The notes under the pieces are model-generated. The model did not search any database. It was not told the origin of the DNA and saw nothing but the letters and a program-made list of their open reading frames with translations. DNA of 27,186 nt, from the IMG/VR virus record IMGVR_UViG_2537561936_000020, positions 1-27,186 of that record, one strand, 5' to 3'. The DNA is from a virus (Duplodnaviria; Heunggongvirae; Uroviricota; Caudoviricetes). Below are positions 1 through 22,087 of this stretch, piece after piece (the first letter of the stretch is position 1; every line of letters starts with the position of its first letter). Position numbers and translations under genes: made by a program.

Positions 1-630
1 AAGAAAATCGAAGACGCACAGCGTGCGGCCATTCTTCAGGACAAGGTTGCCTTGCTTCAGGGGGACCTGGCGAAAATCAATCCGCCGAAGCCTGTGGAAA
101 ATGGCAATGGCACCGGAGGTGATAAACCCAAAGACAACAAACCGCTCACAGACAGCAATACCGGTACACTACGCAGACTCAGCAAAATTGCTGATAACAC
201 AGGTAAGCTGGTTGATGAGACGAAAAAACGCATTGGCCCCGGCGATATTGTCTTTAAGAACCTGCCCCGCGCACTTGCTGTTCGTGGGGAGTGGCAGGAG
301 CGGAAGATTGCGCAGGTCGGTAAGCCTGCCCCCGCAATTAATATCACCCCCGTGGTCCCGGCTCCGCTGCCTCCGGCGCTGGTCCCTGTTGTTGCGGCCA
401 GCTCCCGCCCGGTGGCGGAGGCCATACGATCTCCAGTGGCATCAGTTCCTGTAACTTCCCGTAACCGGGAGCCTGTTGCCTCCGGATTTGGTGGTGAAAT
501 TCATGTTCATCTGCATAACGTTGTTACGCAGAATCCCCGCGAACTGGCGAAACTGGTCGGTGAAATGGTCAGGGCAGAAACGGAACGGCGCGCCCGTGCC
601 GGGCGTGGCAGTTTTTACGATAAAGATTGA
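1..630 (+). CDS. T: Tail tape measure protein, C-terminal part (5' end lies outside the window)
   Basis: Reading frame is open from base 1 and continuous with ORF 52..630. C-terminal sequence and its position directly upstream of a gpU homologue match P2 gpT from memory. Confidence 0.75.
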   Translation, partial: KKIEDAQRAAILQDKVALLQGDLAKINPPKPVENGNGTGGDKPKDNKPLTDSNTGTLRRLSKIADNTGKLVDETKKRIGPGDIVFKNLPRALAVRGEWQERKIAQVGKPAPAINITPVVPAPLPPALVPVVAASSRPVAEAIRSPVASVPVTSRNREPVASGFGGEIHVHLHNVVTQNPRELAKLVGEMVRAETERRARAGRGSFYDKD

Positions 631-636
631 GGAGTC

Positions 637-1131
637 ATGGCCATGATGATGATCTACGGCATGTTTGTTTTTGAGCTGCGCACACTGCCGCATCAGCAGT
701 TACAGCAAAACAAAAGCTGGCGGCATGTGAAAAATGAGCGCGTAAACCGCTCAGCAAGCTGGCAGTATATCGGTGCAGGTGATGATCGCATCGTGCTTTC
801 TGGCGTGCTTTATCCTGAAATTACAGGTGGCGAAGTGTCGCTTTCGCTGCTGACCACGCAGGCATATACAGGACGCCCCTGGCCTCTGATTGATGGTGTC
901 GGGCAGATTTACGGCATGTATGTACTGACTGAAACGAATACGACCCGCTCCGAGTTTGATCGCTACGGTAAGGCGAAAAAGATAGAATTTTCACTGACTC
1001 TTGAACGCTGTGATGAGGATTTGCGGGAGCGCCTGCAATCCTCATCGTTCAGTGATATGCTGTCCGGCTTCAAAGATAAGGTCACATCATCCCTTAACAG
1101 CGCGGCCAGCTCCGTTAAAGGGCTGTTTTGA
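637..1131 (+). CDS. U: Tail protein U (P2 gpU family)
   Basis: 164 aa. N-terminus (MMIYGMFVFELRTLPHQQLQ...WRH...GVLYPEITGG...WPLIDG) aligns with P2 gpU as recalled. Sits 6 bp after T. Confidence 0.85.
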   Translation: MAMMMIYGMFVFELRTLPHQQLQQNKSWRHVKNERVNRSASWQYIGAGDDRIVLSGVLYPEITGGEVSLSLLTTQAYTGRPWPLIDGVGQIYGMYVLTETNTTRSEFDRYGKAKKIEFSLTLERCDEDLRERLQSSSFSDMLSGFKDKVTSSLNSAASSVKGLF

Positions 1132-1138
1132 TTAACGC

Positions 1139-1168
1139 AAAACCGCTAATGGTCAGATTAGCGGTTTT
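1139..1168. terminator. Bidirectional hairpin between convergent U and invertase genes
   Basis: Perfect 12-bp inverted repeat AAAACCGCTAAT / ATTAGCGGTTTT with a 6-nt loop, followed by TTTTCATTTTCC on the + strand. It overlaps the invertase stop codon. Confidence 0.55.
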
Positions 1169-1757
1169 CATTTTCCTGAGTCTGCCTGGTTGTTTCTTCA
1201 GCCTGTATATCGCCTACAGGGTGATAACGATAAATCGTCGATATGCCGATGTCGTAAATGATCGCCAGTTGTTTCCTGTCATGACCGTTTTTAATCAGCC
1301 TCGCTATTTGCTCGTGTTGTTCTTTTGTCAACTTCGGGCGACGTCCGCCAATGCGTCCTTGTGCGCGTGCTGCTGCCAGCCCGGCCAGTGTACGCTCTAC
1401 AATTAATTCACGTTCCATTTCGGCTAAAGCCCCCATGACGTGAAAAAAGAAACGCCCCATGGGTGTTGATGTGTCAATGCTGTCCGTCAGACTACGGAAA
1501 TTAACACCTTTTTTCCGCAATTCCTCAATAAGCGTGATCAGGTGTTTCATACTTCTGCCCAGTCTGTCCAGCTTCCAGACAACCAGCGTATCTCCTTCTG
1601 ATAGCGTTCTGAGCAGTTTTTTCAATCCCGGTCTGGCTGATTTCGTTCCGCTGATTTTATCTTCAAAAATCAGTTCACATCCTGCGCAGTTCAGTGCATT
1701 GCGTTGTAAATCCGTGTTCTGGTCATTTGTTGACACACGAATATAGCCAATTTGCAT
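1158..1757 (-). CDS. Serine recombinase, DNA invertase of the Hin/Gin/Cin/Pin/Min family
   Basis: From internal Met: MQIGYIRVSTNDQNTDLQRNAL...LVVWKLDRLGRS...GRFFFHVMGALAEMERELIVERTLAGLAAARAQGR...IIYDIGISTIYR. Catalytic Ser in RVS and C-terminal HTH present. ORF-track start 1952 is an upstream extension; ATG at 1755-1757 checked in the DNA. Confidence 0.92.
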   Translation of the reverse strand: MQIGYIRVSTNDQNTDLQRNALNCAGCELIFEDKISGTKSARPGLKKLLRTLSEGDTLVVWKLDRLGRSMKHLITLIEELRKKGVNFRSLTDSIDTSTPMGRFFFHVMGALAEMERELIVERTLAGLAAARAQGRIGGRRPKLTKEQHEQIARLIKNGHDRKQLAIIYDIGISTIYRYHPVGDIQAEETTRQTQENENR

Positions 1758-1811
1758 AAAAAACATCCTTTTTGTTTCGTGAAAAATACATAGTTGGTAT
1801 AGGTAGGGATA

Positions 1812-1837
1812 AAGACGAAAACGTTGGTTTGGGGGAA
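1812..1837 (+). other. Candidate crossover site D (hix/gix-like, 12-2-12)
   Basis: AAGACGAAAACG-TT-GGTTTGGGGGAA. AAAAC(G/C)..GGTTT halves around a 2-bp core as in Hin-family sites. Lies exactly at the start of cassette 4. Confidence 0.6.
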
Positions 1838-2296
1838 GGCTCTGCGCTGCCCGTTGGTGTGCCCGTTCCATGGCCCTCAGCCACGCTGCCAACGGGGTGG
1901 CTGAAATGTAACGGCGCAGCATTTTCTTCTGAAATGTACCCCAATCTGGCAAAGGCCTACCCCACCAATAAATTACCGGATTTACGGGGCGAATTTATTC
2001 GCGGCTGGGATGACGGACGGGGCGTTGATAATGGGCGCAACCTACTGTCTGCACAGTCTGACGCTATTCAGAATATAGTTGGCACTTTTGGGCGTACTCA
2101 GCTTTTTAAAGATGCGCTTAATTCAGGACCATTTAGTCAAACTGACTCTATATTATCAGTAGGCTTACAACCAACTGAGATCATTGAAGGATATGGTGCT
2201 TCTGTATGGACATTCGACGCCTCTCGCTCAGTTCGCACAGCATCTGAAACACGCCCCCATAACATTGCGTTTAATTACATCGTAAGGGCAGCATGA
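1826..2296 (+). CDS. Silent alternative tail-fibre C-terminal cassette 4 (tail-collar-type domain)
   Basis: Shares the conserved start GEGSALPVGVPVPWP..GWLKCNGAAFSSEMYP..LPDLRGEFIRGWDDGRGVD and conserved end ETRPHNIAFNYIVRAA with the H C-terminus; central part is unique. No start codon of its own; ORF-track ATG at 1772 is probably fortuitous. Confidence 0.7.
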   Translation, partial: GLGEGSALPVGVPVPWPSATLPTGWLKCNGAAFSSEMYPNLAKAYPTNKLPDLRGEFIRGWDDGRGVDNGRNLLSAQSDAIQNIVGTFGRTQLFKDALNSGPFSQTDSILSVGLQPTEIIEGYGASVWTFDASRSVRTASETRPHNIAFNYIVRAA

Positions 2297-2315
2297 AAAC
2301 GTTGGTTTAGGAGAA
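2290..2315 (+). other. Candidate crossover site C (hix/gix-like)
   Basis: AGCATGAAAACG-TT-GGTTTAGGAGAA. Spans the stop of cassette 4 and the start of cassette 3. Confidence 0.6.
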
Positions 2316-2783
2316 GGCTCTGCACTGCCCGTTGGTGTGCCCGTTCCGTGGCCCTTAGCAACACCACCAACGGGCTGGCTGAAATGTAACGGTGCAGCAT
2401 TTTCTTCTGAAATGTACCCCAATCTGGCAAAAGCCTACCCCACCAATAAATTACCGGATTTACGGGGCGAATTTATTCGTGGCTGGGATGATGGGCGAGG
2501 AATTGATGCAGCACGCGCTTTATTGAGCATTCAAACCGGGATGTTGGAAAAACACCGCCATATTGTTGTAGCTAACGATGGATATGACACAAAGGATGAA
2601 TGGGAGTTGGCCACGATTTTCAAAAAAACATATACACAAGGCAGGGGGCTTGATGCCACAAATACAGGAGGGAGTTTGATTCCATCACCAACGCTTCATT
2701 CACGAGGAAGTATTGGTAACACAGGTGGTAGTGAAACCCGCCCCCGCAATATTGCATTTAACTATATCGTGAGGGCGGCTTAG
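2304..2783 (+). CDS. Silent alternative tail-fibre C-terminal cassette 3
   Basis: Same conserved N- and C-terminal blocks (…ETRPRNIAFNYIVRAA*) with a unique middle. Begins at the crossover core with no start codon of its own. Confidence 0.7.
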   Translation, partial: GLGEGSALPVGVPVPWPLATPPTGWLKCNGAAFSSEMYPNLAKAYPTNKLPDLRGEFIRGWDDGRGIDAARALLSIQTGMLEKHRHIVVANDGYDTKDEWELATIFKKTYTQGRGLDATNTGGSLIPSPTLHSRGSIGNTGGSETRPRNIAFNYIVRAA

Positions 2784-2789
2784 TTATAT

Positions 2790-3401
2790 TCAACTGGCTG
2801 ATGCCAGTGGTATTCCCGGCAAGTTGATATCTGGTGCCATGTTTATATCCATTGCGTTCAGCGCGTCTATATAATCCAGCACGGCATTAAGCCGGGTGGT
2901 TTCTGCCTGCGTCAACTTCCGCCCGGCCCGCAACTTCAACTGAATCAGACTTATGGAATCCATTGCCGCATCAGCCAGTGACTGGCGCTTGGTTTCTGCC
3001 GCTTCTACTGCGGCACTATGTTGTGCCTCAGTATCTGTCACCCATTTTTCACCATCCCATTTATCGTATGGTGTTGACGGGGAGATAGTGGTTGTATTTT
3101 TCGGGTAGTCACCTAGCGTCGTGATTTCTTCGGTGTTTCCCGTGTCAGTGTTATAGACGGTTTCACCACGATGATCTGGCGTATACTCCCATGAATTTAA
3201 ATTCTCCGAACGGCGGATAGCATAGCCCGCTTTATGTGCGCCCGGGGCATCTAAACAGGAATTTGCCGGAATACCGACACCCGCAGCAAGATATTCAGTT
3301 GATTCGGAAATATATTCCCGTGTCTCACCATCATAGTTATAAACGACGATGTTTCCTGCCTGTACGGCAATAAGGTCATCATTTAATATCGCGTTATTCA
3401 T
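2790..3401 (-). CDS. tfa: Tail fibre assembly chaperone (Tfa / P2 gpG-like)
   Basis: 203 aa. GVGIPANS...EYTPDHRGETVYNTDTG...YDKWDGEKWVTDTEAQ and a C-terminal helical region typical of lambda Tfa / P2 G family. ATG overlaps the TAA of cassette 2 (TAATG). Confidence 0.8.
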   Translation of the reverse strand: MNNAILNDDLIAVQAGNIVVYNYDGETREYISESTEYLAAGVGIPANSCLDAPGAHKAGYAIRRSENLNSWEYTPDHRGETVYNTDTGNTEEITTLGDYPKNTTTISPSTPYDKWDGEKWVTDTEAQHSAAVEAAETKRQSLADAAMDSISLIQLKLRAGRKLTQAETTRLNAVLDYIDALNAMDINMAPDINLPGIPLASAS

Positions 3402-3859
3402 TATGCGGTTCTCACAATATAATTGAAGGCAATATTGCGTGGGCGGGTTTCATTCCCCTCTGAGGATTCCGTTCTGTATTGACTGGTAAATCTACCGTTA
3501 ATTGCACCTTGCCGGACGGCGTTATCTGTCGACAACAGACTATCCCCGCCTTTGTCATTTGGCACCAGTACCGTGTTATCCCACGCATCCCATGACCGAA
3601 TATTATGATAATGACTTCCTGTTAACCACCCCTGCATGCTTAAGATGACCCTTCCGGCATCCACCCCGCGCCCATCATCCCAGCCACGGATAAATTCACC
3701 GCGTAAGTCTGGTAATTTATTGGTGGGGTAAGCCATTGCCAGTCTGGGATACATTTCAGAAGAAAATGCTGCGCCGTTACATTTCAGCCACCCCGTTGGC
3801 GGCGTGGCTGAGGGCCATGGAACAGGTACACCAACGGGCAGTGCAGAGCCTTCCCCCAA
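3401..3859 (-). CDS. Silent alternative tail-fibre C-terminal cassette 2
   Basis: Conserved N and C blocks (…NIAFNYIVRTA*). The ORF-track start is TTG within the crossover site; translationally coupled to tfa. Confidence 0.7.
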   Translation of the reverse strand: MGEGSALPVGVPVPWPSATPPTGWLKCNGAAFSSEMYPRLAMAYPTNKLPDLRGEFIRGWDDGRGVDAGRVILSMQGWLTGSHYHNIRSWDAWDNTVLVPNDKGGDSLLSTDNAVRQGAINGRFTSQYRTESSEGNETRPRNIAFNYIVRTA

Positions 3860-3876
3860 ACCAACGTTTTCATGCT
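3851..3876 (-). other. Candidate crossover site B (hix/gix-like)
   Basis: On the - strand AGCATGAAAACG-TT-GGTTTGGGGGAA, matching site D in its right half and site C in its left half. Overlaps the H stop codon. Confidence 0.6.
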
Positions 3877-5513
3877 GCTCTTACGATGTAATTAAACGCA
3901 ATGTTGCGTGGGCGGTTTTCGTTTGCAGTTGGAACAATTCTTGAAGCATCAAGGCCAATCACTTTTGGGTAAACAGTGCCATCTGTTCTTTCAGTCACCA
4001 TACTTCTGATTAAGGAGAAATAACTATTGTTCGTTGAGGGACTCAAAGGCACCACTGCCCCCTTAAATGAGTCTACTGATTCCCATATTGAATAATTTTC
4101 GGTGTTTACAGTCTTGAACTCACCATAGATATTACGTATGGCATCACCTTGAGCGGATAATATTGTTCTCCCCGCATCCACACCACGTCCGTCATCCCAA
4201 CCACGGATAAATTCACCGCGTAAATCCGGTAATTTATTGGTGGGATAAGCCTTTGCCAGTTTTGGGTACTTTTCAGAAGAAAATGCTGCTCCGTTGCATT
4301 TCAGCCATCCCGTTGGCGGTGTTTCTAAGGGCCACGGAACGGGTACACCAACGGGCAGTGCAGAGCCTTCCCCCAAACCAAGGTAATCAAGAACTCCCTG
4401 AGTGCTGGTTTTGCCAAGAATGGCACGTCCAACACTTGTCAACGCGGTTAACGCGGCACGATCTGCCCCTGTAAAATATGGGAGTTTATCTGCTGATGTA
4501 GCAAGCTCCGCCAGCGCCGTCAGGGTGGCATCCTTCGGTTGCTTACCCGCAAGCGCGTTAGTCATGGTGGTCGCAAAATTCGGGTCATTGCCCAGCGCCG
4601 CAGCCAGTTCGTTCAGCGTGTTCAGTGCATCAGGTGACGAGTCTACAAGTGCGGCAATCGCGGCCATAACGAAAGCCGTGCTTGCGATCTGGGTACTATT
4701 AGTCCCCTGTGCCGCTGTTGGTGTTGTTGGCGTTCCGGTCAGTGCCGGGCTGTTTAATGGTGCTTTCTTGTTCGTTTCATCCATTACCGCCTTAACAGCT
4801 TTTGGTGTCGCTGCCAGTGTTTCAGACGTGCTGTTCGTGGCGCTACTGAGCTGAACAATCCCTTTTTGTGTAGTGGTGGCGTTCTGGGCGGTATATTTCT
4901 CGTTAGCCAGGTCATATGCAGCCTTAACCGCTTTCGGTGTTGCGGCCAGTGTTTCTGATTCACTGTTAATTGCACTGCTTAACTGAGTAAAACCTTTTAC
5001 GGTCAGCGAGGCGTCTGGGTGACGTCGTGACTGTTCGTGCTCTGAGATTTTATCATCCACATATTTGCGGGTTGCCAGAACCACAGACGGGTCGATTTTC
5101 AGCGTGATGGCTTCGGTGTTCGTGACAACCAGAATCATGCGGATAGTCTGGGTGCGTCCACTGCCTTCCTGCAACTGCGGTTTGTACGTTTCCGGGCAGT
5201 TTGCCACCGCAATGAGTACACCTTCATCATCATAAAGACCAATCTCACGGATCCAGAATCCTCCCTCGTTTTCAGGGATGATTTGCTCCGCAATAATCTG
5301 GCTCTGATTGTTAGGGTCAACACTCAGAAGATTCAGCGGTGCAATGCGTTTCTGGTTAATCAGTTTTGTTTGTGCAGGGTCTGGTGTTGGTAACACACCA
5401 TTTGCATCACCAACGGCCATTTGCGTCAGATTCAGCTTACTGCCGAGCATCGTCGCGTTAGCCAGTCGTGCTGCGCCCTGATTAGTCAGAATGGCGTAGT
5501 ATTTCACTGTCAT
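3870..5513 (-). CDS. H: Tail fibre protein H: P2-like constant N-terminal region fused to invertible C-terminal cassette 1
   Basis: 547 aa. First ~390 aa match P2 gpH (…YVDDKISEHEQSRRHPDASLTVKGFTQLSSA…ATPKAVKAVMDETNKKAPLNSPALTGTPTTPTA…). C-terminal ~160 aa is the cassette-type domain ending NIAFNYIVRAA. Confidence 0.9.
   Translation of the reverse strand: MTVKYYAILTNQGAARLANATMLGSKLNLTQMAVGDANGVLPTPDPAQTKLINQKRIAPLNLLSVDPNNQSQIIAEQIIPENEGGFWIREIGLYDDEGVLIAVANCPETYKPQLQEGSGRTQTIRMILVVTNTEAITLKIDPSVVLATRKYVDDKISEHEQSRRHPDASLTVKGFTQLSSAINSESETLAATPKAVKAAYDLANEKYTAQNATTTQKGIVQLSSATNSTSETLAATPKAVKAVMDETNKKAPLNSPALTGTPTTPTAAQGTNSTQIASTAFVMAAIAALVDSSPDALNTLNELAAALGNDPNFATTMTNALAGKQPKDATLTALAELATSADKLPYFTGADRAALTALTSVGRAILGKTSTQGVLDYLGLGEGSALPVGVPVPWPLETPPTGWLKCNGAAFSSEKYPKLAKAYPTNKLPDLRGEFIRGWDDGRGVDAGRTILSAQGDAIRNIYGEFKTVNTENYSIWESVDSFKGAVVPLSPSTNNSYFSLIRSMVTERTDGTVYPKVIGLDASRIVPTANENRPRNIAFNYIVRAA
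4368..4393 (-). other. Candidate crossover site A inside H (constant/variable junction)
   Basis: On the - strand TTCTTGATTACC-TT-GGTTTGGGGGAA. Left half resembles hixL TTCTTGAAAACC; right half is identical to sites B and D. Confidence 0.6.
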
Positions 5514-13005: not shown

Positions 13006-13837
13006 TCAGAAGTCAGCCAGCTGGTCGGAGGCTGCGCCCGTTGCGGTGAACCGGTTCTGCGGATCGCCGTCCTGCGTGCGCAGTTTTTCCTTCAGTGCTG
13101 TCAGCTCTGTGGTCAGCGAAGTGATTTTCTGGCTGTCCTGCTGATGGCGGGTTTCCAGTGCATTAAAACGGTCGATAATGTCGGCCTGTGATGTTGCGAC
13201 ACCTTCCAGCGCTTCCTGAATACGGGAGAAACTGGCGTCATCCGCTTTGCGGCCACGGCCAATAATCCCCATTACGCGGTTAAACCACTGGGTGCCTTCT
13301 TCCTGACGTTGTTCGGTGAGTTCGATAAGTTCTGACTCCATAGCGGCGGTAAACATCGCCACGTCTCCCTGCTGACAGTTGAATGTCATCAGCGCCTGAC
13401 GTTGCTGTGCCGTGAATTTCAGGCGCTCAGTGCCCAGGCTTGCCGGGGTGTCGGTCATCGCCAGCCCGACCAGATAGGCGCGCCCGTTAACGGAGAACTG
13501 CGGGTGCAGTTCGATACTGGAATAGATTTTCTTGCCATCGACAAGCAGCATCATGCGAGCGGTCGGCTCAATTTCGGCATACAGCGCAGTACGGCCGGCC
13601 AGCGGACCATCCGTAATGTCTTCCGTACTCAACCCCACAACATCGCCCATAGCGGAAAACTCGCTGCCGGGCATGGCGACAGATGTGCTCAATATTCACA
13701 CGTGCACCATAAACGGACGGGTTATAACTGGTGGCGGCAGCTTTCAGCATGTCGCCGTTGATTTCGCGCCCGTCTGCCGTCACACCGGAGACAGCCACGC
13801 GAAACTTTTTGCGGGATGTCTTTTTTTCATTAGTCAT
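13006..13837 (-). CDS. O: Capsid scaffold protein O, apparently frameshifted near 13667-13672
   Basis: N-terminal part (MTNEKK…PSVYGARVNIEH) is in the frame of ORF 13568..13870; the remainder (PGSEFSAMGDVVGL…YLVGLAMTDTPASLGTE) is in the frame of ORF 13006..13692. Both halves align to P2 gpO. Confidence 0.6.
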
Positions 13838-13991
13838 AGTTTTTGCCCCTCTGACTGGTTCTTCAGTCATGATGGCAAAGCGTAACAGGCTGATACAAAG
13901 GGCTTTTGTTGTAAGAAAACGGCCAGAACAGGGGGTTAAGGAGAACGGTTTCGCGCGCGGGTAATCTTCCTGTAATTACTCAGGGGGAGCA
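13838..13991. promoter_or_regulatory. Divergent late-promoter region between O and P
   Basis: 154-bp gap between divergently oriented O and P, as for the P2 late promoters. Contains the near-dyad ACAAAGGGCTTTTGT. No precise promoter assigned. Confidence 0.35.
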
Positions 13992-17715: not shown

Positions 17716-17909
17716 AATGCCGCGCAATTATCTTGTCGCTCACAATGCGAACGATCTTACAAAAAGGCACATTACTGTCAAGATAATTGATCGTTTTAAT
17801 CGATAGATAATAGACAATCTATTTGTTTAACAGATCGATTATTGAAGTAAGTGTGCCAAATGGAATGATACTGTCTCTATAAACGTGAGCATTTTTCGCG
17901 CAGATGCTT

Positions 17910-18221
17910 TTACTCAGGAAATAACGCCCGGATATTCCCAGCCATCTGGCTGGTTATCTTAGCCACTGGTGCAGACTGTGCTTCAAACTTTTTTGAGCTG
18001 ATTTGTGTCACAGGTAACATCTCATCATCAGCCCATGCGGCCAGTCGGTAAGCCTCTGCCGGATTCGTCTTCAGAAGTGCCAGCCCGGCCAGAAAAGCCA
18101 CGCGTTGGCCGCTTTTGCGGGCTTCTGGTGTAAGGCTGTCCAGCCAGGCGCATGCTTCTCCTTCGTTCTTGACGGCGGCGGGCTTCAGATAGAAACTTAT
18201 CCGTCTGGTTGGTGTCGTCAT
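17910..18221 (-). CDS. parR: ParR-like centromere-binding protein
   Basis: 103 aa from MTTPTRRISFYLKPAAV…AWLDSLTPEARKSGQRVAFLAGLAL, recalling the R1 ParR N-terminus. AAGGAG lies 8 nt upstream, inside the parM 3' end. ORF-track start 18356 rejected. Confidence 0.7.
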   Translation of the reverse strand: MTTPTRRISFYLKPAAVKNEGEACAWLDSLTPEARKSGQRVAFLAGLALLKTNPAEAYRLAAWADDEMLPVTQISSKKFEAQSAPVAKITSQMAGNIRALFPE

Positions 18222-18225
18222 TGGT

Positions 18226-19185
18226 TTACTCCTTGTCCATTGCGTACAGCCCATTAACCAGAGCAAACTGTGGCACCCCGTCCGCGATGAAAGTCGCATT
18301 AACTCCGCAGGCTTCGCGGATAGCGGGTGCCACAATCTCCGCCCCGCCACCGACAACCATCACCCGCCCGTAACCCGAAAAAACCGCCAGCGCGCGGATC
18401 ACGCGTTGTTTCAGTGTTTCTTCCTTTTCACGAATAACCGCCATCAGGCTGGCGTAATGCGCGTCATTGTGGATGTGCTGGCGCAGCCAGGCTTCATCAT
18501 GGCGATGTTCGATAATGGTATTGGCGATGTGGTGACTGGTGCGCATACCGTTAGTGGCCATCACCGACAGTACGGCATCGGCCATAAGAGAAACGCCTAC
18601 GTGTGGATCGCAAAACACCTGGCTGATACCTGCCAGTTGCCCCTGAACCTTTGCCACATCCAGCGTGGTTCCGCCCAAATCCACAATCAGCAGGGATTCA
18701 AACGGACTCATGTCAGCCAGTGCTTTAAAGCCAGCCGGAATGGATTCAGGCATAACCCGTACGTTACGGATAGTGAATGCTTCGCCGTTCTGGTACTCCA
18801 CCGGGCGCATGACGTTCGCTTTTTTGCGGTTGATGTTGGCCATGTCCGGCTGTGCGTTTGTGTCGAAATATTCGCTCAGTGGCAGGGTAACAACCACATC
18901 CACTTCCTGTGGCGTGATGTCTGATTTGACCAGCGCGTGATGAATGGCAATGACATTCACATCGCTGTACTGGTATTGCGTGTCGGTCGTCTGGACAAAG
19001 CGATCGCTGACCGGATCAAAACCATAGCGCACGCCATCAAGCATGTAGTTAGCAGGCTGCGAGCCACCGAACGGCGCAGACCATTCCGACTTGAAGCTGT
19101 TCGGGCTGATGGCGTTGCGGCGTTCGCCGTTCTCAGTCCATGCCAGCTTGATGTTGGTGGAGCCGTCGTCGATGTAAATTTTCAT
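18226..19185 (-). CDS. parM: ParM/StbA-like actin-type segregation ATPase
   Basis: 319 aa. MKIYIDDGSTNIKLAW…ISPNSFK…QYSDVNVIAIHHAL…EVDVVVTLPL…VVGGGAEI, closely following the R1 ParM pattern as recalled. Confidence 0.85.
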   Translation of the reverse strand: MKIYIDDGSTNIKLAWTENGERRNAISPNSFKSEWSAPFGGSQPANYMLDGVRYGFDPVSDRFVQTTDTQYQYSDVNVIAIHHALVKSDITPQEVDVVVTLPLSEYFDTNAQPDMANINRKKANVMRPVEYQNGEAFTIRNVRVMPESIPAGFKALADMSPFESLLIVDLGGTTLDVAKVQGQLAGISQVFCDPHVGVSLMADAVLSVMATNGMRTSHHIANTIIEHRHDEAWLRQHIHNDAHYASLMAVIREKEETLKQRVIRALAVFSGYGRVMVVGGGAEIVAPAIREACGVNATFIADGVPQFALVNGLYAMDKE

Positions 19186-19215
19186 GTCGGTTTTCCTTAT
19201 GTTGATTAATTAATC

Positions 19216-19328
19216 GTTTACGGGATTCTGAAATCCCGTTTTTGCCTGTTTTGTGCGCGCTTCATATATCGCTGCGCGTTTTTTGCTCATTTACGGGATT
19301 CGTGAGTCCCGTTTCTGTCTGTTTTTTG
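19216..19328. repeat. Candidate parC centromere/operator: two ~40-bp direct repeats each containing a 20-bp palindrome
   Basis: ACGGGATTCTGAAATCCCGT (19220-19239) and ACGGGATTCGTGAGTCCCGT (19293-19312), 73 bp apart, each followed by TTT(T/C)TG(C/T)CTGTTTT(G/T)TG. Lies directly upstream of parM. Confidence 0.6.
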
Positions 19329-22087
19329 TTTCCACTGGTCAGGCCACCCCGCAGCAGGTCTGCTTTGCGGCTGGCGCGTTCAGTGGTTTCACTGATTCTC
19401 TGTGCGTGCTCTGCGTCGCGGATGGCGCGCAGCATGTCAGAAAGCACGGTAACGGGTGTTTTCATGGTGTTCTGGTCCTGCTGAAGTGTGGATGCCAGGC
19501 GTGCGGCGGCTTCAGGGTCTGATGCCCCCAGCTGTGCCAGATAGCTGGCGACCGGGTTATGGCGGATCTCCGTGCTGCTTACGCCATGATTACGGCTCAG
19601 ACGCTGCCAGAGCTGCGTGATTCGGCTGTCCGGGCGGGTATCCGGTTTGCGTACAATTTCAAATCCCTGCGGTGCAATGATGCTGCCGTCAACGTACAGA
19701 CTGCCGCCCCGTAACAGGTGCTGCATCTGTTGTTCACCGATATGCAGGCCGAGAGATTCAGCAGACTCCCGCCATTCTTTAGCGAGTAACTCGTGGTTAT
19801 CAGGCAAAGGCCGCTGCTGTTTGCGGCTCTGTGTCCAGTTCTGCATTTCATCGCTGCTGTTTTTTGCCTGTTTGTCACGAAGCGAACGCATCAGCGCCCG
19901 GCGTTCGTGCCGTTTCAGTGAGCGCATCCATTCATTTACTTCAACGCCGTCAGGAAGCTGCGGCCACGGTGCTGGCCGTTCTTCCGGCTGTTCTGTCCCG
20001 TTGTTGCCTGTTTCCTGTACACGGGGACAGTTATTGCCACGAGTCCAAGGGGCGGCAGGGCCGCCCTGAAGGTCAAAACCATTTTCGCGGGCGCTGTCTT
20101 CCGCTTCCGGTTTACGTCTTACCAGCTTCCAGTTATCCGGATGCGTGCACACACGGGAGGATTCCCCGATGAATGGCGACCAGATCCCGTAAATCTGTAC
20201 ACTCTGTTCGCCGTAATCGTTCAGCTCATCTGCGAGGTCGTAGGCTGTGCGAATCAGGTAGTCCTTGCGCGGAACAAGTACGCCACCCTGTTTTTCAATG
20301 TAGGTGGCAAAACATCCGGCATCAGCGGCAGCGAGTACCGCATCCATTGCGTCATCCTTCAGCCGTTGCGGGCCTTCCGGGTTGCGTGCCATCTGGCTGG
20401 CAAGGCGGCGGAGTTCACGCCACACCTGACGGGAGGGGATGCCAAAGAACTGGAACTGGCGGACCCGGTGAAGGCGCGCCCAGCCGATGGCTCGCTCCAC
20501 GCTCTCGGCCATTGATTTACCTGTTTCGTGGTCAACGCGTGGCTTGCCCGTTTTCGGGTCGATGCCATCCACGGCGCGGCTGTCCAGGTTCTTTCCGATG
20601 TAGGTGGCGATGTAGCTGGTTGGCGTGCCTTTTGAGCCGTCGACGTACTCCGCCTTAAAGCGTGGGGTAATATCATCACCCAGCTCGTGACGATCTTCCT
20701 GAATGGCAATATCGCGGGTGTGGGACACAATGGTGTCGATTTCTTCCGGATGAGCAAAGACCATCATATGCCAGTGCACGGTGCCGTCATGGTGAGGCTC
20801 CACCGTGCGGATGCCATACCAGCGCAGGCCGTCGCGGTTCAGTTTCTTGCGGACCGCTGCAAAAAACGTGTTAACCAGGTAATCGCTGGAGTCGCGCATG
20901 GTGGCCCCGTTCCATTTGGGATTCGGATGACCGTTCTCTGTTGTGGCGTGGTATTTTGACGGGCAGGTGACAGTTAGAAACACCGCTTTGTCGCCACGGG
21001 CTTCGGCCAGAAGTTCCAGCCCCTTCATGGTGGCCATCATTTCTGCCTTACGGTGAACCGGGTTACTTACTCCCGCGTAATACACTGTCTCGAGATCAAT
21101 CGTGAAACCGTCTTCGTTTTCCAGTTCGAAGCTCTTCAGGAAGTCGCGGGTTTTCTCGCGCTGTGCGCGAAACTCGCTTAACGCGTCCTGGCTCAGATAG
21201 GGTGATGTTTTTCTGGAAACCAGACAGGCGGCGCGGAGTTGTTCTTCTCTCCACTCACAACGTAACAGCCACAGTTTGCGTTTCCACCAGTCCGCACAGG
21301 TCAGGCGAAGGATTGCGCCCGGCAGCAGTTCCGTATCCGGTTCGCTCTTGTTCAGGGCTTCGTAATGTGGCGGCATGATGTGCAGGCGTAATGCGATACG
21401 AGCCAGCATCCGGTAAGCCTTCAACATTACATCCATGGTCAGCTCGCCATCTCTGGCACCAAAGCCATCGCAGAGTGTTTCGAAGGTGCTGCTGAACATC
21501 GCCGCGGTCATGGTGGCCAGCGTCTGTATCTGGTGCTTGTTGAGCTGCGGCAGGTAAAGCAAATCGTCCAGGCGTTCGCGCCCGGCAAGGGAGCGATAAC
21601 CCGGTGTCAGCCAGCGTCCGTCAGTGCGATCCAGACGTTCGAATATTTTGCGCAGGGTTCCGCGTGCATAGCGTTCCGCCTGCCAGCTCTTTTTGCCTTT
21701 CTGGCGATCGGCTTCCTGTTTTTTGCGCAGGAAAGAGAGGTGGCGGCTCAGTGGTTCACGCAGATAAACAGGTAGTGCCTTTAGTGTGGCAAAGGCACGG
21801 GCTACTGGGTCTTGTTCTGTTGCCCGGCGCTTACTGATGATGCTCTGTGCCAGCTTTTCACGCTGTCCGGCTTCCTCAAGGGATGCCATGAGTTTTTTAC
21901 CCATGGCGGATTGTGCGAAAAAGGCTTCTTCCTTCGCTTCCTGTTCTTCCTGTGCCCTTTTGTCTGCCTCAAGGTAGTAACGGATGGCGCGTTGCAGGTC
22001 GGTTTCAGTTTCCTGCCTGCGCTCCGTAAACCTGGCCGGATCAATGGCTGGCCGTGGTTCATTCCAGCTCCATGCAAACTCGCTCAT
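19262..22087 (-). CDS. A: Replication initiation endonuclease A (rolling-circle Rep, P2 gpA-like)
   Basis: About 941 aa. HUH-type motif DGTVHWHMMVF and tyrosine pair TSYIATYIGK. Start chosen at Met10 (ATGA overlap with the upstream gene). Confidence 0.85.
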   Translation of the reverse strand: MSEFAWSWNEPRPAIDPARFTERRQETETDLQRAIRYYLEADKRAQEEQEAKEEAFFAQSAMGKKLMASLEEAGQREKLAQSIISKRRATEQDPVARAFATLKALPVYLREPLSRHLSFLRKKQEADRQKGKKSWQAERYARGTLRKIFERLDRTDGRWLTPGYRSLAGRERLDDLLYLPQLNKHQIQTLATMTAAMFSSTFETLCDGFGARDGELTMDVMLKAYRMLARIALRLHIMPPHYEALNKSEPDTELLPGAILRLTCADWWKRKLWLLRCEWREEQLRAACLVSRKTSPYLSQDALSEFRAQREKTRDFLKSFELENEDGFTIDLETVYYAGVSNPVHRKAEMMATMKGLELLAEARGDKAVFLTVTCPSKYHATTENGHPNPKWNGATMRDSSDYLVNTFFAAVRKKLNRDGLRWYGIRTVEPHHDGTVHWHMMVFAHPEEIDTIVSHTRDIAIQEDRHELGDDITPRFKAEYVDGSKGTPTSYIATYIGKNLDSRAVDGIDPKTGKPRVDHETGKSMAESVERAIGWARLHRVRQFQFFGIPSRQVWRELRRLASQMARNPEGPQRLKDDAMDAVLAAADAGCFATYIEKQGGVLVPRKDYLIRTAYDLADELNDYGEQSVQIYGIWSPFIGESSRVCTHPDNWKLVRRKPEAEDSARENGFDLQGGPAAPWTRGNNCPRVQETGNNGTEQPEERPAPWPQLPDGVEVNEWMRSLKRHERRALMRSLRDKQAKNSSDEMQNWTQSRKQQRPLPDNHELLAKEWRESAESLGLHIGEQQMQHLLRGGSLYVDGSIIAPQGFEIVRKPDTRPDSRITQLWQRLSRNHGVSSTEIRHNPVASYLAQLGASDPEAAARLASTLQQDQNTMKTPVTVLSDMLRAIRDAEHAQRISETTERASRKADLLRGGLTSGNKKQTETGLTNPVNEQKTRSDI

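Follow-up and report, generated by a model that had tools for sequence, protein, structure and literature searches.

Inverted T-U tail genes in a P88-like P2-family prophage and a separately placed gene D in its relatives

Results

Gene order at the left end of the window

The stretch of DNA analysed here, referred to as the window, comprises the 27,186 nucleotides of the IMG/VR virus record IMGVR_UViG_2537561936_000020 and holds most of a P2-family prophage, namely its left part in 27 kb, with the integrase gene cut by the right end. It opens with the tail genes T and U, both on the plus strand. The T gene is represented by its last 209 codons and the stop codon (1-630), the start of the gene lying about 2.2 kb to the left of the window. 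The encoded C-terminus shares 98.6% amino acid identity with residues 727-935 of the P88 tape-measure protein (tblastn) and matches PHROG 17114/5431; the homologous T gene of Escherichia coli APEC37 occupies 17823-20630 of sequence L002, in which position 20001 corresponds to position 1 of the window. T is followed by the tail gene U (637-1131), whose product is recognised by the Pfam family Phage_P2_GpU (PF06995, 133 bits, E 5.5e-39) as well as by PHROG 76 (tail protein) and is 99.4% identical to P88 U. In RefSeq relatives U starts at the ATG equivalent to position 643.

On the minus strand, facing U, lies a gene for a Hin/Gin/Cin-type serine DNA invertase of 199 amino acids (1158-1757; Resolvase PF00239, 174.6 bits; HTH_7 PF02796, 47.9 bits). 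Its N-terminus, MQIGYIRVSTNDQ, includes the catalytic Ser, with 'YIRVSTNDQ' forming residues 5-13, and the protein is assigned to PHROG 125 ('DNA invertase') and is 86% identical on the amino acid level to the P88 invertase. It has the build of the serine invertases, which is that of proteins of about 190 amino acids with an N-terminal resolvase domain carrying the Ser nucleophile and a C-terminal helix-turn-helix. Between the stop codons of U (1131) and of the invertase gene (1158-1160) a terminator scan placed a palindromic hairpin with a 12-bp stem (1139-1168, both strands), which folds stably on either strand (-18.6 kcal/mol on the plus and -16.9 kcal/mol on the minus strand, with z values of -2.2 and -3.0, respectively). 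The hairpin lies between an A-tract and a T-tract, the stop codon of the invertase gene falls partly within its right arm, and P88 carries the same hairpin at 27555-27596. The structure is likely to be a two-way terminator common to the U operon and the invertase gene.

The genes H, I, J, W and V are on the minus strand, and tblastn with all P88 proteins left D, FI, FII and E without a match over the whole window. From the strands and these searches it follows that T and U run opposite to H and towards the invertase gene, without D after U, and an earlier note on this DNA, which had described just such a convergence over a two-strand hairpin, was correct in all these points. In a P2-type F operon D directly follows U on the same strand and the operon is co-directional with V-W-J-I-H-G. 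Here the hairpin and the convergent invertase gene stand after U instead, and T and U are on the plus strand as opposed to V-W-J-I-H on the minus strand. The contiguity of FI-FII-E-E'-T-U is preserved, as seen for T-U in the window and for the full block in close relatives.

The left flank in close relatives

The earlier note had advised an examination of the sequence beyond position 1, and this was made in relatives. In P88 the order is H, G, G', H' and invertase on the plus strand, U, T, E', E, FII and FI on the minus strand, and D and an unannotated ogr, again on the plus strand, followed by hok. The same H-G-(cargo)-U-T-E'-E-FII-FI-D-ogr order is present in E. coli APEC37, O157:H7 ECP19-2498, D72, PhiR44_2 and Chuche, and in the first three of these the block is next to attR. 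APEC37 is 98.4% identical to the window over positions 1-3000 (best match over 25 kb, 96%); T starts 2.2 kb and FI 4.4 kb upstream of its equivalent of window position 1, and FI and D diverge from a spacer of 157 bp. In P88-type relatives D is an intact open reading frame (ORF) of 366-369 amino acids with ogr after it. Thus FI-FII-E-E'-T-U is contiguous and co-oriented with the T-U genes of the window, and D-ogr lies beyond FI in the P2 orientation. It is therefore FI-U that is inverted with respect to P2 and not D-ogr. The window itself shows the H-invertase-U-T part of this P88-like order, the rest being present in relatives that are 90-98% identical to it across the junction. U is the terminal gene of an inverted FI-FII-E-E'-T-U operon, and D is not lost; to judge by the sequence of the relatives, it would lie beyond FI, outside the window. 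The operon would be read on the plus strand, starting at a late promoter some 4.5 kb to the left of position 1 and ending at the hairpin 1139-1168. D and ogr would keep the P2 orientation beyond FI, with FI and D divergent over about 125-165 bp in most loci.

Several observations concern the annotation and content of this flank. For the intact D of about 1.1 kb, the RefSeq Prokaryotic Genome Annotation Pipeline (PGAP) gives 801 bp in P88-type prophages (L002, 14289-15398; L006, 8663-9516; L007, 10620-11473) and adds a spurious 93-bp 'incomplete' pseudogene on the opposite strand. In the RefSeq record of P88 ogr is not annotated, although an ORF of 86 amino acids for it follows D (L001, 34476-34736). 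In APEC37 a low-GC hypothetical gene of 340 amino acids is located between D and ogr (L002, 13146-14168) and in O157:H7 ECP19-2498 a different gene of 201 amino acids is found there, so that the lineage has a second variable cargo slot at this place.

Distribution of the inverted order

A D-protein alignment was scanned over one genome per species of GTDB, and the best 80 loci were classified by tblastn. In every locus whose D shares 61% identity or more with P88 D (29 of 29), FI-FII-T-U lies upstream of D and on the other strand. Their hosts include Salmonella, Kluyvera, Kosakonia, Klebsiella, Enterobacter, Citrobacter, Providencia and Morganella, and further Xenorhabdus, Photorhabdus, Hafnia, Rouxiella, Dryocola, Pectobacterium and Yersinia. 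At D identities of 54% or less, U immediately precedes D on one and the same strand in each locus that holds both genes. Deposited phages show the same gap in D identity (at least 62% versus at most 52%). Neighbour-joining trees of D, FI, FII and U each place the inverted loci, with P88 among them, in one monophyletic group; the window belongs to this clade, its U and T being 99% identical to those of P88. One Gram-positive entry, 'Vagococcus sp. WN89Y' (L010, NZ_JBQPOM010000071.1), has a P88-type tail region with a D 99% identical to that of the E. coli phage, and contamination or a mislabelled genome is the most likely explanation for it.

In P2, Fels-2, Peduovirus magyaro and the distantly related phage phiCTX of Pseudomonas, H-G-(cargo)-FI-FII-E-E'-T-U-D runs along a single strand, and since all of them share this co-linear order we regard it as ancestral. 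K139 was also considered as an outgroup and was set aside as uninformative, its organisation being HP1-like; phiCTX was usable. Among complete E. coli genomes the divergent D-FI junction is intact in 1,356 of 5,426, and a P88-type U-to-D junction, searched with a synthetic query in the P2 order, was absent from all 1,415 genomes containing both pieces.

A predicted late promoter in the FI-D spacer

Late promoters of the Ogr/Delta type consist of a TGT-N12-ACA dyad about 55 bp upstream of the transcription start, a -10 element and a poor -35 region. The FI-D spacers of the inverted loci contain exactly one perfect TGT-N12-ACA in 25 of 29 cases, 71-76 nt from the start codon of FI. Anchored on the dyad, a hexamer with A2 and T6, the two key bases of a -10 element, starts at position 53 in 24 of the 26 unique sequences in the direction of D and in 25 of 26 in the direction of FI, as compared to at most 9 sequences at every other offset. 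(For L010 and L011 the D start was taken to be the annotated one with a good Shine-Dalgarno sequence, not the upstream in-frame ATG.) In the P2 promoter pF, which has the same type of operator, the -10 element (GAAAAT) starts at position 54 from the dyad, so that the dyad-to--10 spacing is within 1 bp of that in the inverted clade. The divergent P2 promoters pP and pO share one dyad midway between their starts, which lie about 55 bp to either side; in the P2 record, where 'activator binding site; pO, pP promoters' is one annotated feature, the two starts are separated by 111 bp. A like symmetry is seen in the FI-D spacers of the inverted loci, the layout of pP/pO being taken from the P2 record annotation and that of FI/D being deduced from sequence.

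The window has its own example of such a layout. In its divergent P/O spacer one TGT-N12-AGA dyad (13910-13927) forms a putative late-promoter operator, with -10-like hexamers about 53 nt from it on both sides, as in the geometry of P2 pO/pP. Sequence features of Ogr/Delta-type promoters are hence present both in this spacer and, outside the window, in the FI-D spacers of the relatives. We predict that the FI-D spacer is a bidirectional Ogr-dependent late promoter with a single central dyad, an arrangement like that of pP/pO in P2, by which D would stay under common control with the other tail genes. The late promoters of the clade also carry a CGCGCG-rich element just upstream of the -10 hexamer, which is found on the P side of the P/O spacer in the window (13950-13960) and on the FI side in P88; in L012-L037 nearly every FI-D spacer has it towards D, at positions 38-48 as counted from the dyad.

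Invertase, tail-fibre cassettes and remaining genes

The tail fibre gene H (3870-5513, minus strand) encodes a Pfam Phage_tail_fib N-terminus, a fibre repeat and a Collar domain. Around it and its cassettes we found four hix-like crossover sites. Two are on the minus strand, one at the 5' end of the silent fibre cassette C (1814-1839; TTCCCCCAAACCAACGTTTTCGTC, an exact pattern match) and one at the 5' end of the silent cassette D (2292-2317; 15-mer core with 1 mismatch at 2295-2309), where it opens a 213-nt repeat (2295-2507). The two on the plus strand lie at the head of the second minus-strand fibre cassette (3851-3876) and, within H, at the boundary of its constant and variable parts (4367-4392; TTCCCCCAAACCAAGGTAATCAAGAA, read from the sequence), the latter closing a 222-nt repeat (4168-4389). 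With the core CAAACCAACGTTTTC, inverted 26-bp sites of the hix/gix type are thus present around the fibre cassettes and not around FI-U.

The silent cassettes C and D are two alternative, promoterless fibre C-termini on the plus strand (1772-2783; about 1817-2296 and 2295-2783), inverted with respect to H and recognised as Pfam Collar and as fibre C-termini of PHROG 523/3100 (inverted repeats I3 and I4). They are followed, on the minus strand, by a G-like tail-fibre assembly gene (2790-3401; Pfam Caudo_TAP, 108.9 bits; PHROG 105) and by an extra C-terminal fibre cassette after H and on the same strand (3401-3859; direct repeat D1). As a whole the fibre region (1772-5513) is a four-site, four-cassette inversion system with repeats of about 215 nt. 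The assembly gene 2790-3401 is the only one in it, and as it lies between opposed hix-like sites, any inversion would turn it antisense. The cassette 3401-3859 stands in direct orientation after a complete H, to which no single inversion can join it.

As for the invertase gene itself, it sits as cargo in the variable slot that separates the fibre genes from the F block and that holds Z/fun in P2. The enzyme would act on the hix-like sites of the fibre cassettes, with no part in the orientation of the F block. PhiR44_2 (PV340564.1, L008) is without the invertase gene and yet matches the window through position 1216, that is, over the hairpin and the last ~59 nt of that gene, which suggests that it has lost the invertase by deletion from an invertase-bearing ancestor.

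Beyond H the window contains I, J, W, V, S, R, the lysis genes, X, L, M, N and O, all on the minus strand; P and Q follow O on the plus strand and, after them, the replication gene A and the early genes on the minus strand. Each tail or baseplate gene in the window is present as one copy (tblastn with P88 proteins). Between Q and A there are genes for a ParM-like protein, 99% identical to P88 gp17, and a partition protein (17910-19185, minus strand); these are unexpected in an integrating prophage and might indicate an option of plasmid-like maintenance. Gene O, for the capsid scaffold/protease, looks frameshifted (13600-13870, minus strand), as tblastn with P88 O splits into residues 1-51 and 57-278 and the DNA alignment with APEC37 has two 1-nt gaps near 13675-13690. 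Either this is a sequencing error or the prophage copy is defective.

Discussion

The similarities in gene order and sequence place the window close to phage P88. Xuanwuvirus, as represented by P88, P884B11, 500465-2, 503458, 520873 and Citrobacter phage PhiSM, has the same order of T-U, hairpin, invertase, invertible cassettes and H, with 90-92% nucleotide identity to positions 1-1751 of the window and structural proteins that are 96-100% identical. By the convention of the International Committee on Taxonomy of Viruses (ICTV), members of a genus share about 70% nucleotide similarity over the whole genome; identity times coverage against P88 is about 71.5%, a value for the 27-kb window only, with about 9 kb of the prophage lying outside. 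P88 differs from the window in its integrase (50% identical), its C repressor (42% identical), the cargo between Q and A, and the fibre cassettes, which are H-G/G'-H' in P88 as opposed to four of the collar type and one tfa in the window. Two of these phages are known to be viable, P88 being inducible and lytic (PMC5285337) and PhiSM being released spontaneously, forming plaques and lysogenising K-12 (PMC6456863). By electron microscopy PhiSM was described as having a long non-contractile tail and assigned to the Siphoviridae (PMC6456863). Its genome (OR565851.1, Citrobacter phage Shae_phiSM) is P88-like and of the P2 family, 91.6% identical to the window over 1-1751, and as this family has a contractile sheath and tube, the published morphology appears inconsistent with it.

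Similar arrangements extend beyond Xuanwuvirus. Reginaelenavirus (Klebsiella phage 3LV2017), Senquatrovirus (Salmonella phages SEN4/SEN5) and Novemvirus (Enterobacter phage phiT5282H), which are other genera from other hosts, have the same inverted FI-U with a divergent D whose product is 62-76% identical to P88 D, and none of them has an invertase gene beside U. The F operon of P2 itself (pF: FI-FII-E-E'-T-U-D, ogr) comprises the same gene families in the same FI-to-U order as in the lineage of the window. However, it is co-directional with H and includes D, whereas in that lineage FI-U is inverted and D is separate and divergent. Fels-2 and Peduovirus magyaro, finally, resemble the window in having a Hin-type invertase in the Z/fun slot (about 79% nucleotide identity to that of the window) and an invertible fibre segment after the fibre genes, but differ from it in that FI-U-D follows the invertase in the P2 orientation.

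Taken together, the evidence makes it very probable that the window derives from a P88-like prophage in which the F operon minus D was inverted once and then fixed, D being served by a predicted bidirectional late promoter and the invertase having nothing to do with the rearrangement. The split in D identity and the monophyly of the inverted loci point to one old inversion that was inherited by at least four genera of the Peduoviridae, and we infer that it took place in their common ancestor and has been fixed since. The earlier note had proposed a large inversion of the FI-U block or a different modular architecture. The latter describes the situation well, as all close relatives share the H-G-(cargo)-U..FI-D-ogr order. 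The former holds in so far as a contiguous inverted block is present in each close relative with a readable flank, but the event is old and clade-wide rather than local.

But could the orientation of FI-U be under the control of the neighbouring invertase? The gene abuts U, such enzymes are able to use several sites and there are four hix-like sites in the window, so that FI-U might be a second large invertible segment, flipped at secondary sites as the earlier note had considered, with the window showing one of two states. The distribution of the invertase argues against this. Only three of the 29 inverted-type loci have it beside U and 26 do not; PhiR44_2 and Chuche are inverted without it, and Fels-2 and magyaro keep the P2 order with an invertase in the same slot. 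Moreover, hix-like sites are confined to the fibre region, and in APEC37 neither the junction of U with the invertase gene nor the FI-D spacer has one, nor did the two breakpoints in P88 reveal a recombination scar, as they contain only inverted repeats at chance level, the best of 26 nt and 77% lying inside coding sequence. The flipped state, with U adjacent to D, was not seen in any of the 1,415 E. coli genomes with both pieces. Together with the evidence on the invertase and its sites, this leads us to regard the orientation as fixed and not switchable, and the idea of an invertase-flipped FI-U as highly improbable and close to refuted.

Seen from the window alone, the convergent orientation and the absence of D do resemble the tail-to-tail junction of two prophages or prophage remnants, with T-U contributed by a neighbour. 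For the lineage such a fusion is refuted, and for the window we give it the least credence of all explanations: there is a single set of tail genes, the relatives have no FI-U block but this one, which is bounded within one element by the fibre genes and by D-ogr-attR, and free phage genomes of 34-37 kb share the order, including the viable P88 and PhiSM (PMC5285337, PMC6456863). A separate, ordered FI-FII-E-T-U-D block, by which the earlier note would have recognised a second intact phage, was not found. Somewhat less implausible, yet still unlikely, is that a foreign FI-U module was acquired by recombination and inserted in the opposite orientation, with no inversion in place. P2-like phages are mosaic, and the breakpoints in P88 have no surviving scar that would tell of the origin of the block. 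Then again, D, FI, FII and U show the same split into two groups, with between-group identity medians of 51, 52, 47 and 48%, respectively, which argues for their co-inheritance rather than for a foreign FI-U block, and the dyad-to--10 geometry of the FI promoter equals that of the phage's own P/O promoters.

We thus return to a single, fixed inversion in an ancestor of the P88 lineage, against which several points have to be held. The trees on which the monophyly is based are midpoint-rooted neighbour-joining trees without bootstraps. The window starts inside T, and its own FI, FII, E and D would be arranged as stated only if it follows its relatives. The apparent frameshift in O means that the prophage copy in the window may be defective. 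As to the predicted promoter, the FI-D spacers of the P88 type have a degenerate half-site (TGT-N12-AGA), two Providencia loci have a different palindrome, and the predicted leader of D is only about 13 nt long. Bearing this in mind, we lean towards a scenario in which the inversion of FI-U cut D off from pF and the palindromic Ogr operator became a second bidirectional late promoter, serving FI leftward and D-ogr rightward and so duplicating the P/O design.

Conclusions

The inverted T-U genes and the lack of D after U are real but ordinary, being the standard, publicly annotated synteny of the P88 lineage. A statement of the inversion was not found in the papers searched, which deal with P88, PhiSM, SEN4/5, kosakonicin, xenorhabdicin and a Dickeya tailocin, and our clade-wide mapping of the order and the reading of the FI-D spacer as a bidirectional promoter are small additions and not a discovery. 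They do have practical consequences. About one quarter of complete E. coli genomes carry P88-type prophages, for which P2 is the wrong synteny template; it is normal in these prophages for U to converge on an invertase gene and for D to be 'missing', and neither is a sign of decay or of prophage fusion. Automatic annotation mishandles the rearranged region, with D called too short and ogr omitted.

P2-like tailocins have been described from Kosakonia, Xenorhabdus, Photorhabdus and Pectobacterium. If our interpretation of the FI-D spacer is correct, it would represent an undescribed regulatory consequence of the rearrangement, kept in at least four genera of the Peduoviridae and also in the related loci of these four hosts. 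The spacer may then serve as a compact natural test case for how one activator site drives two divergent late promoters.

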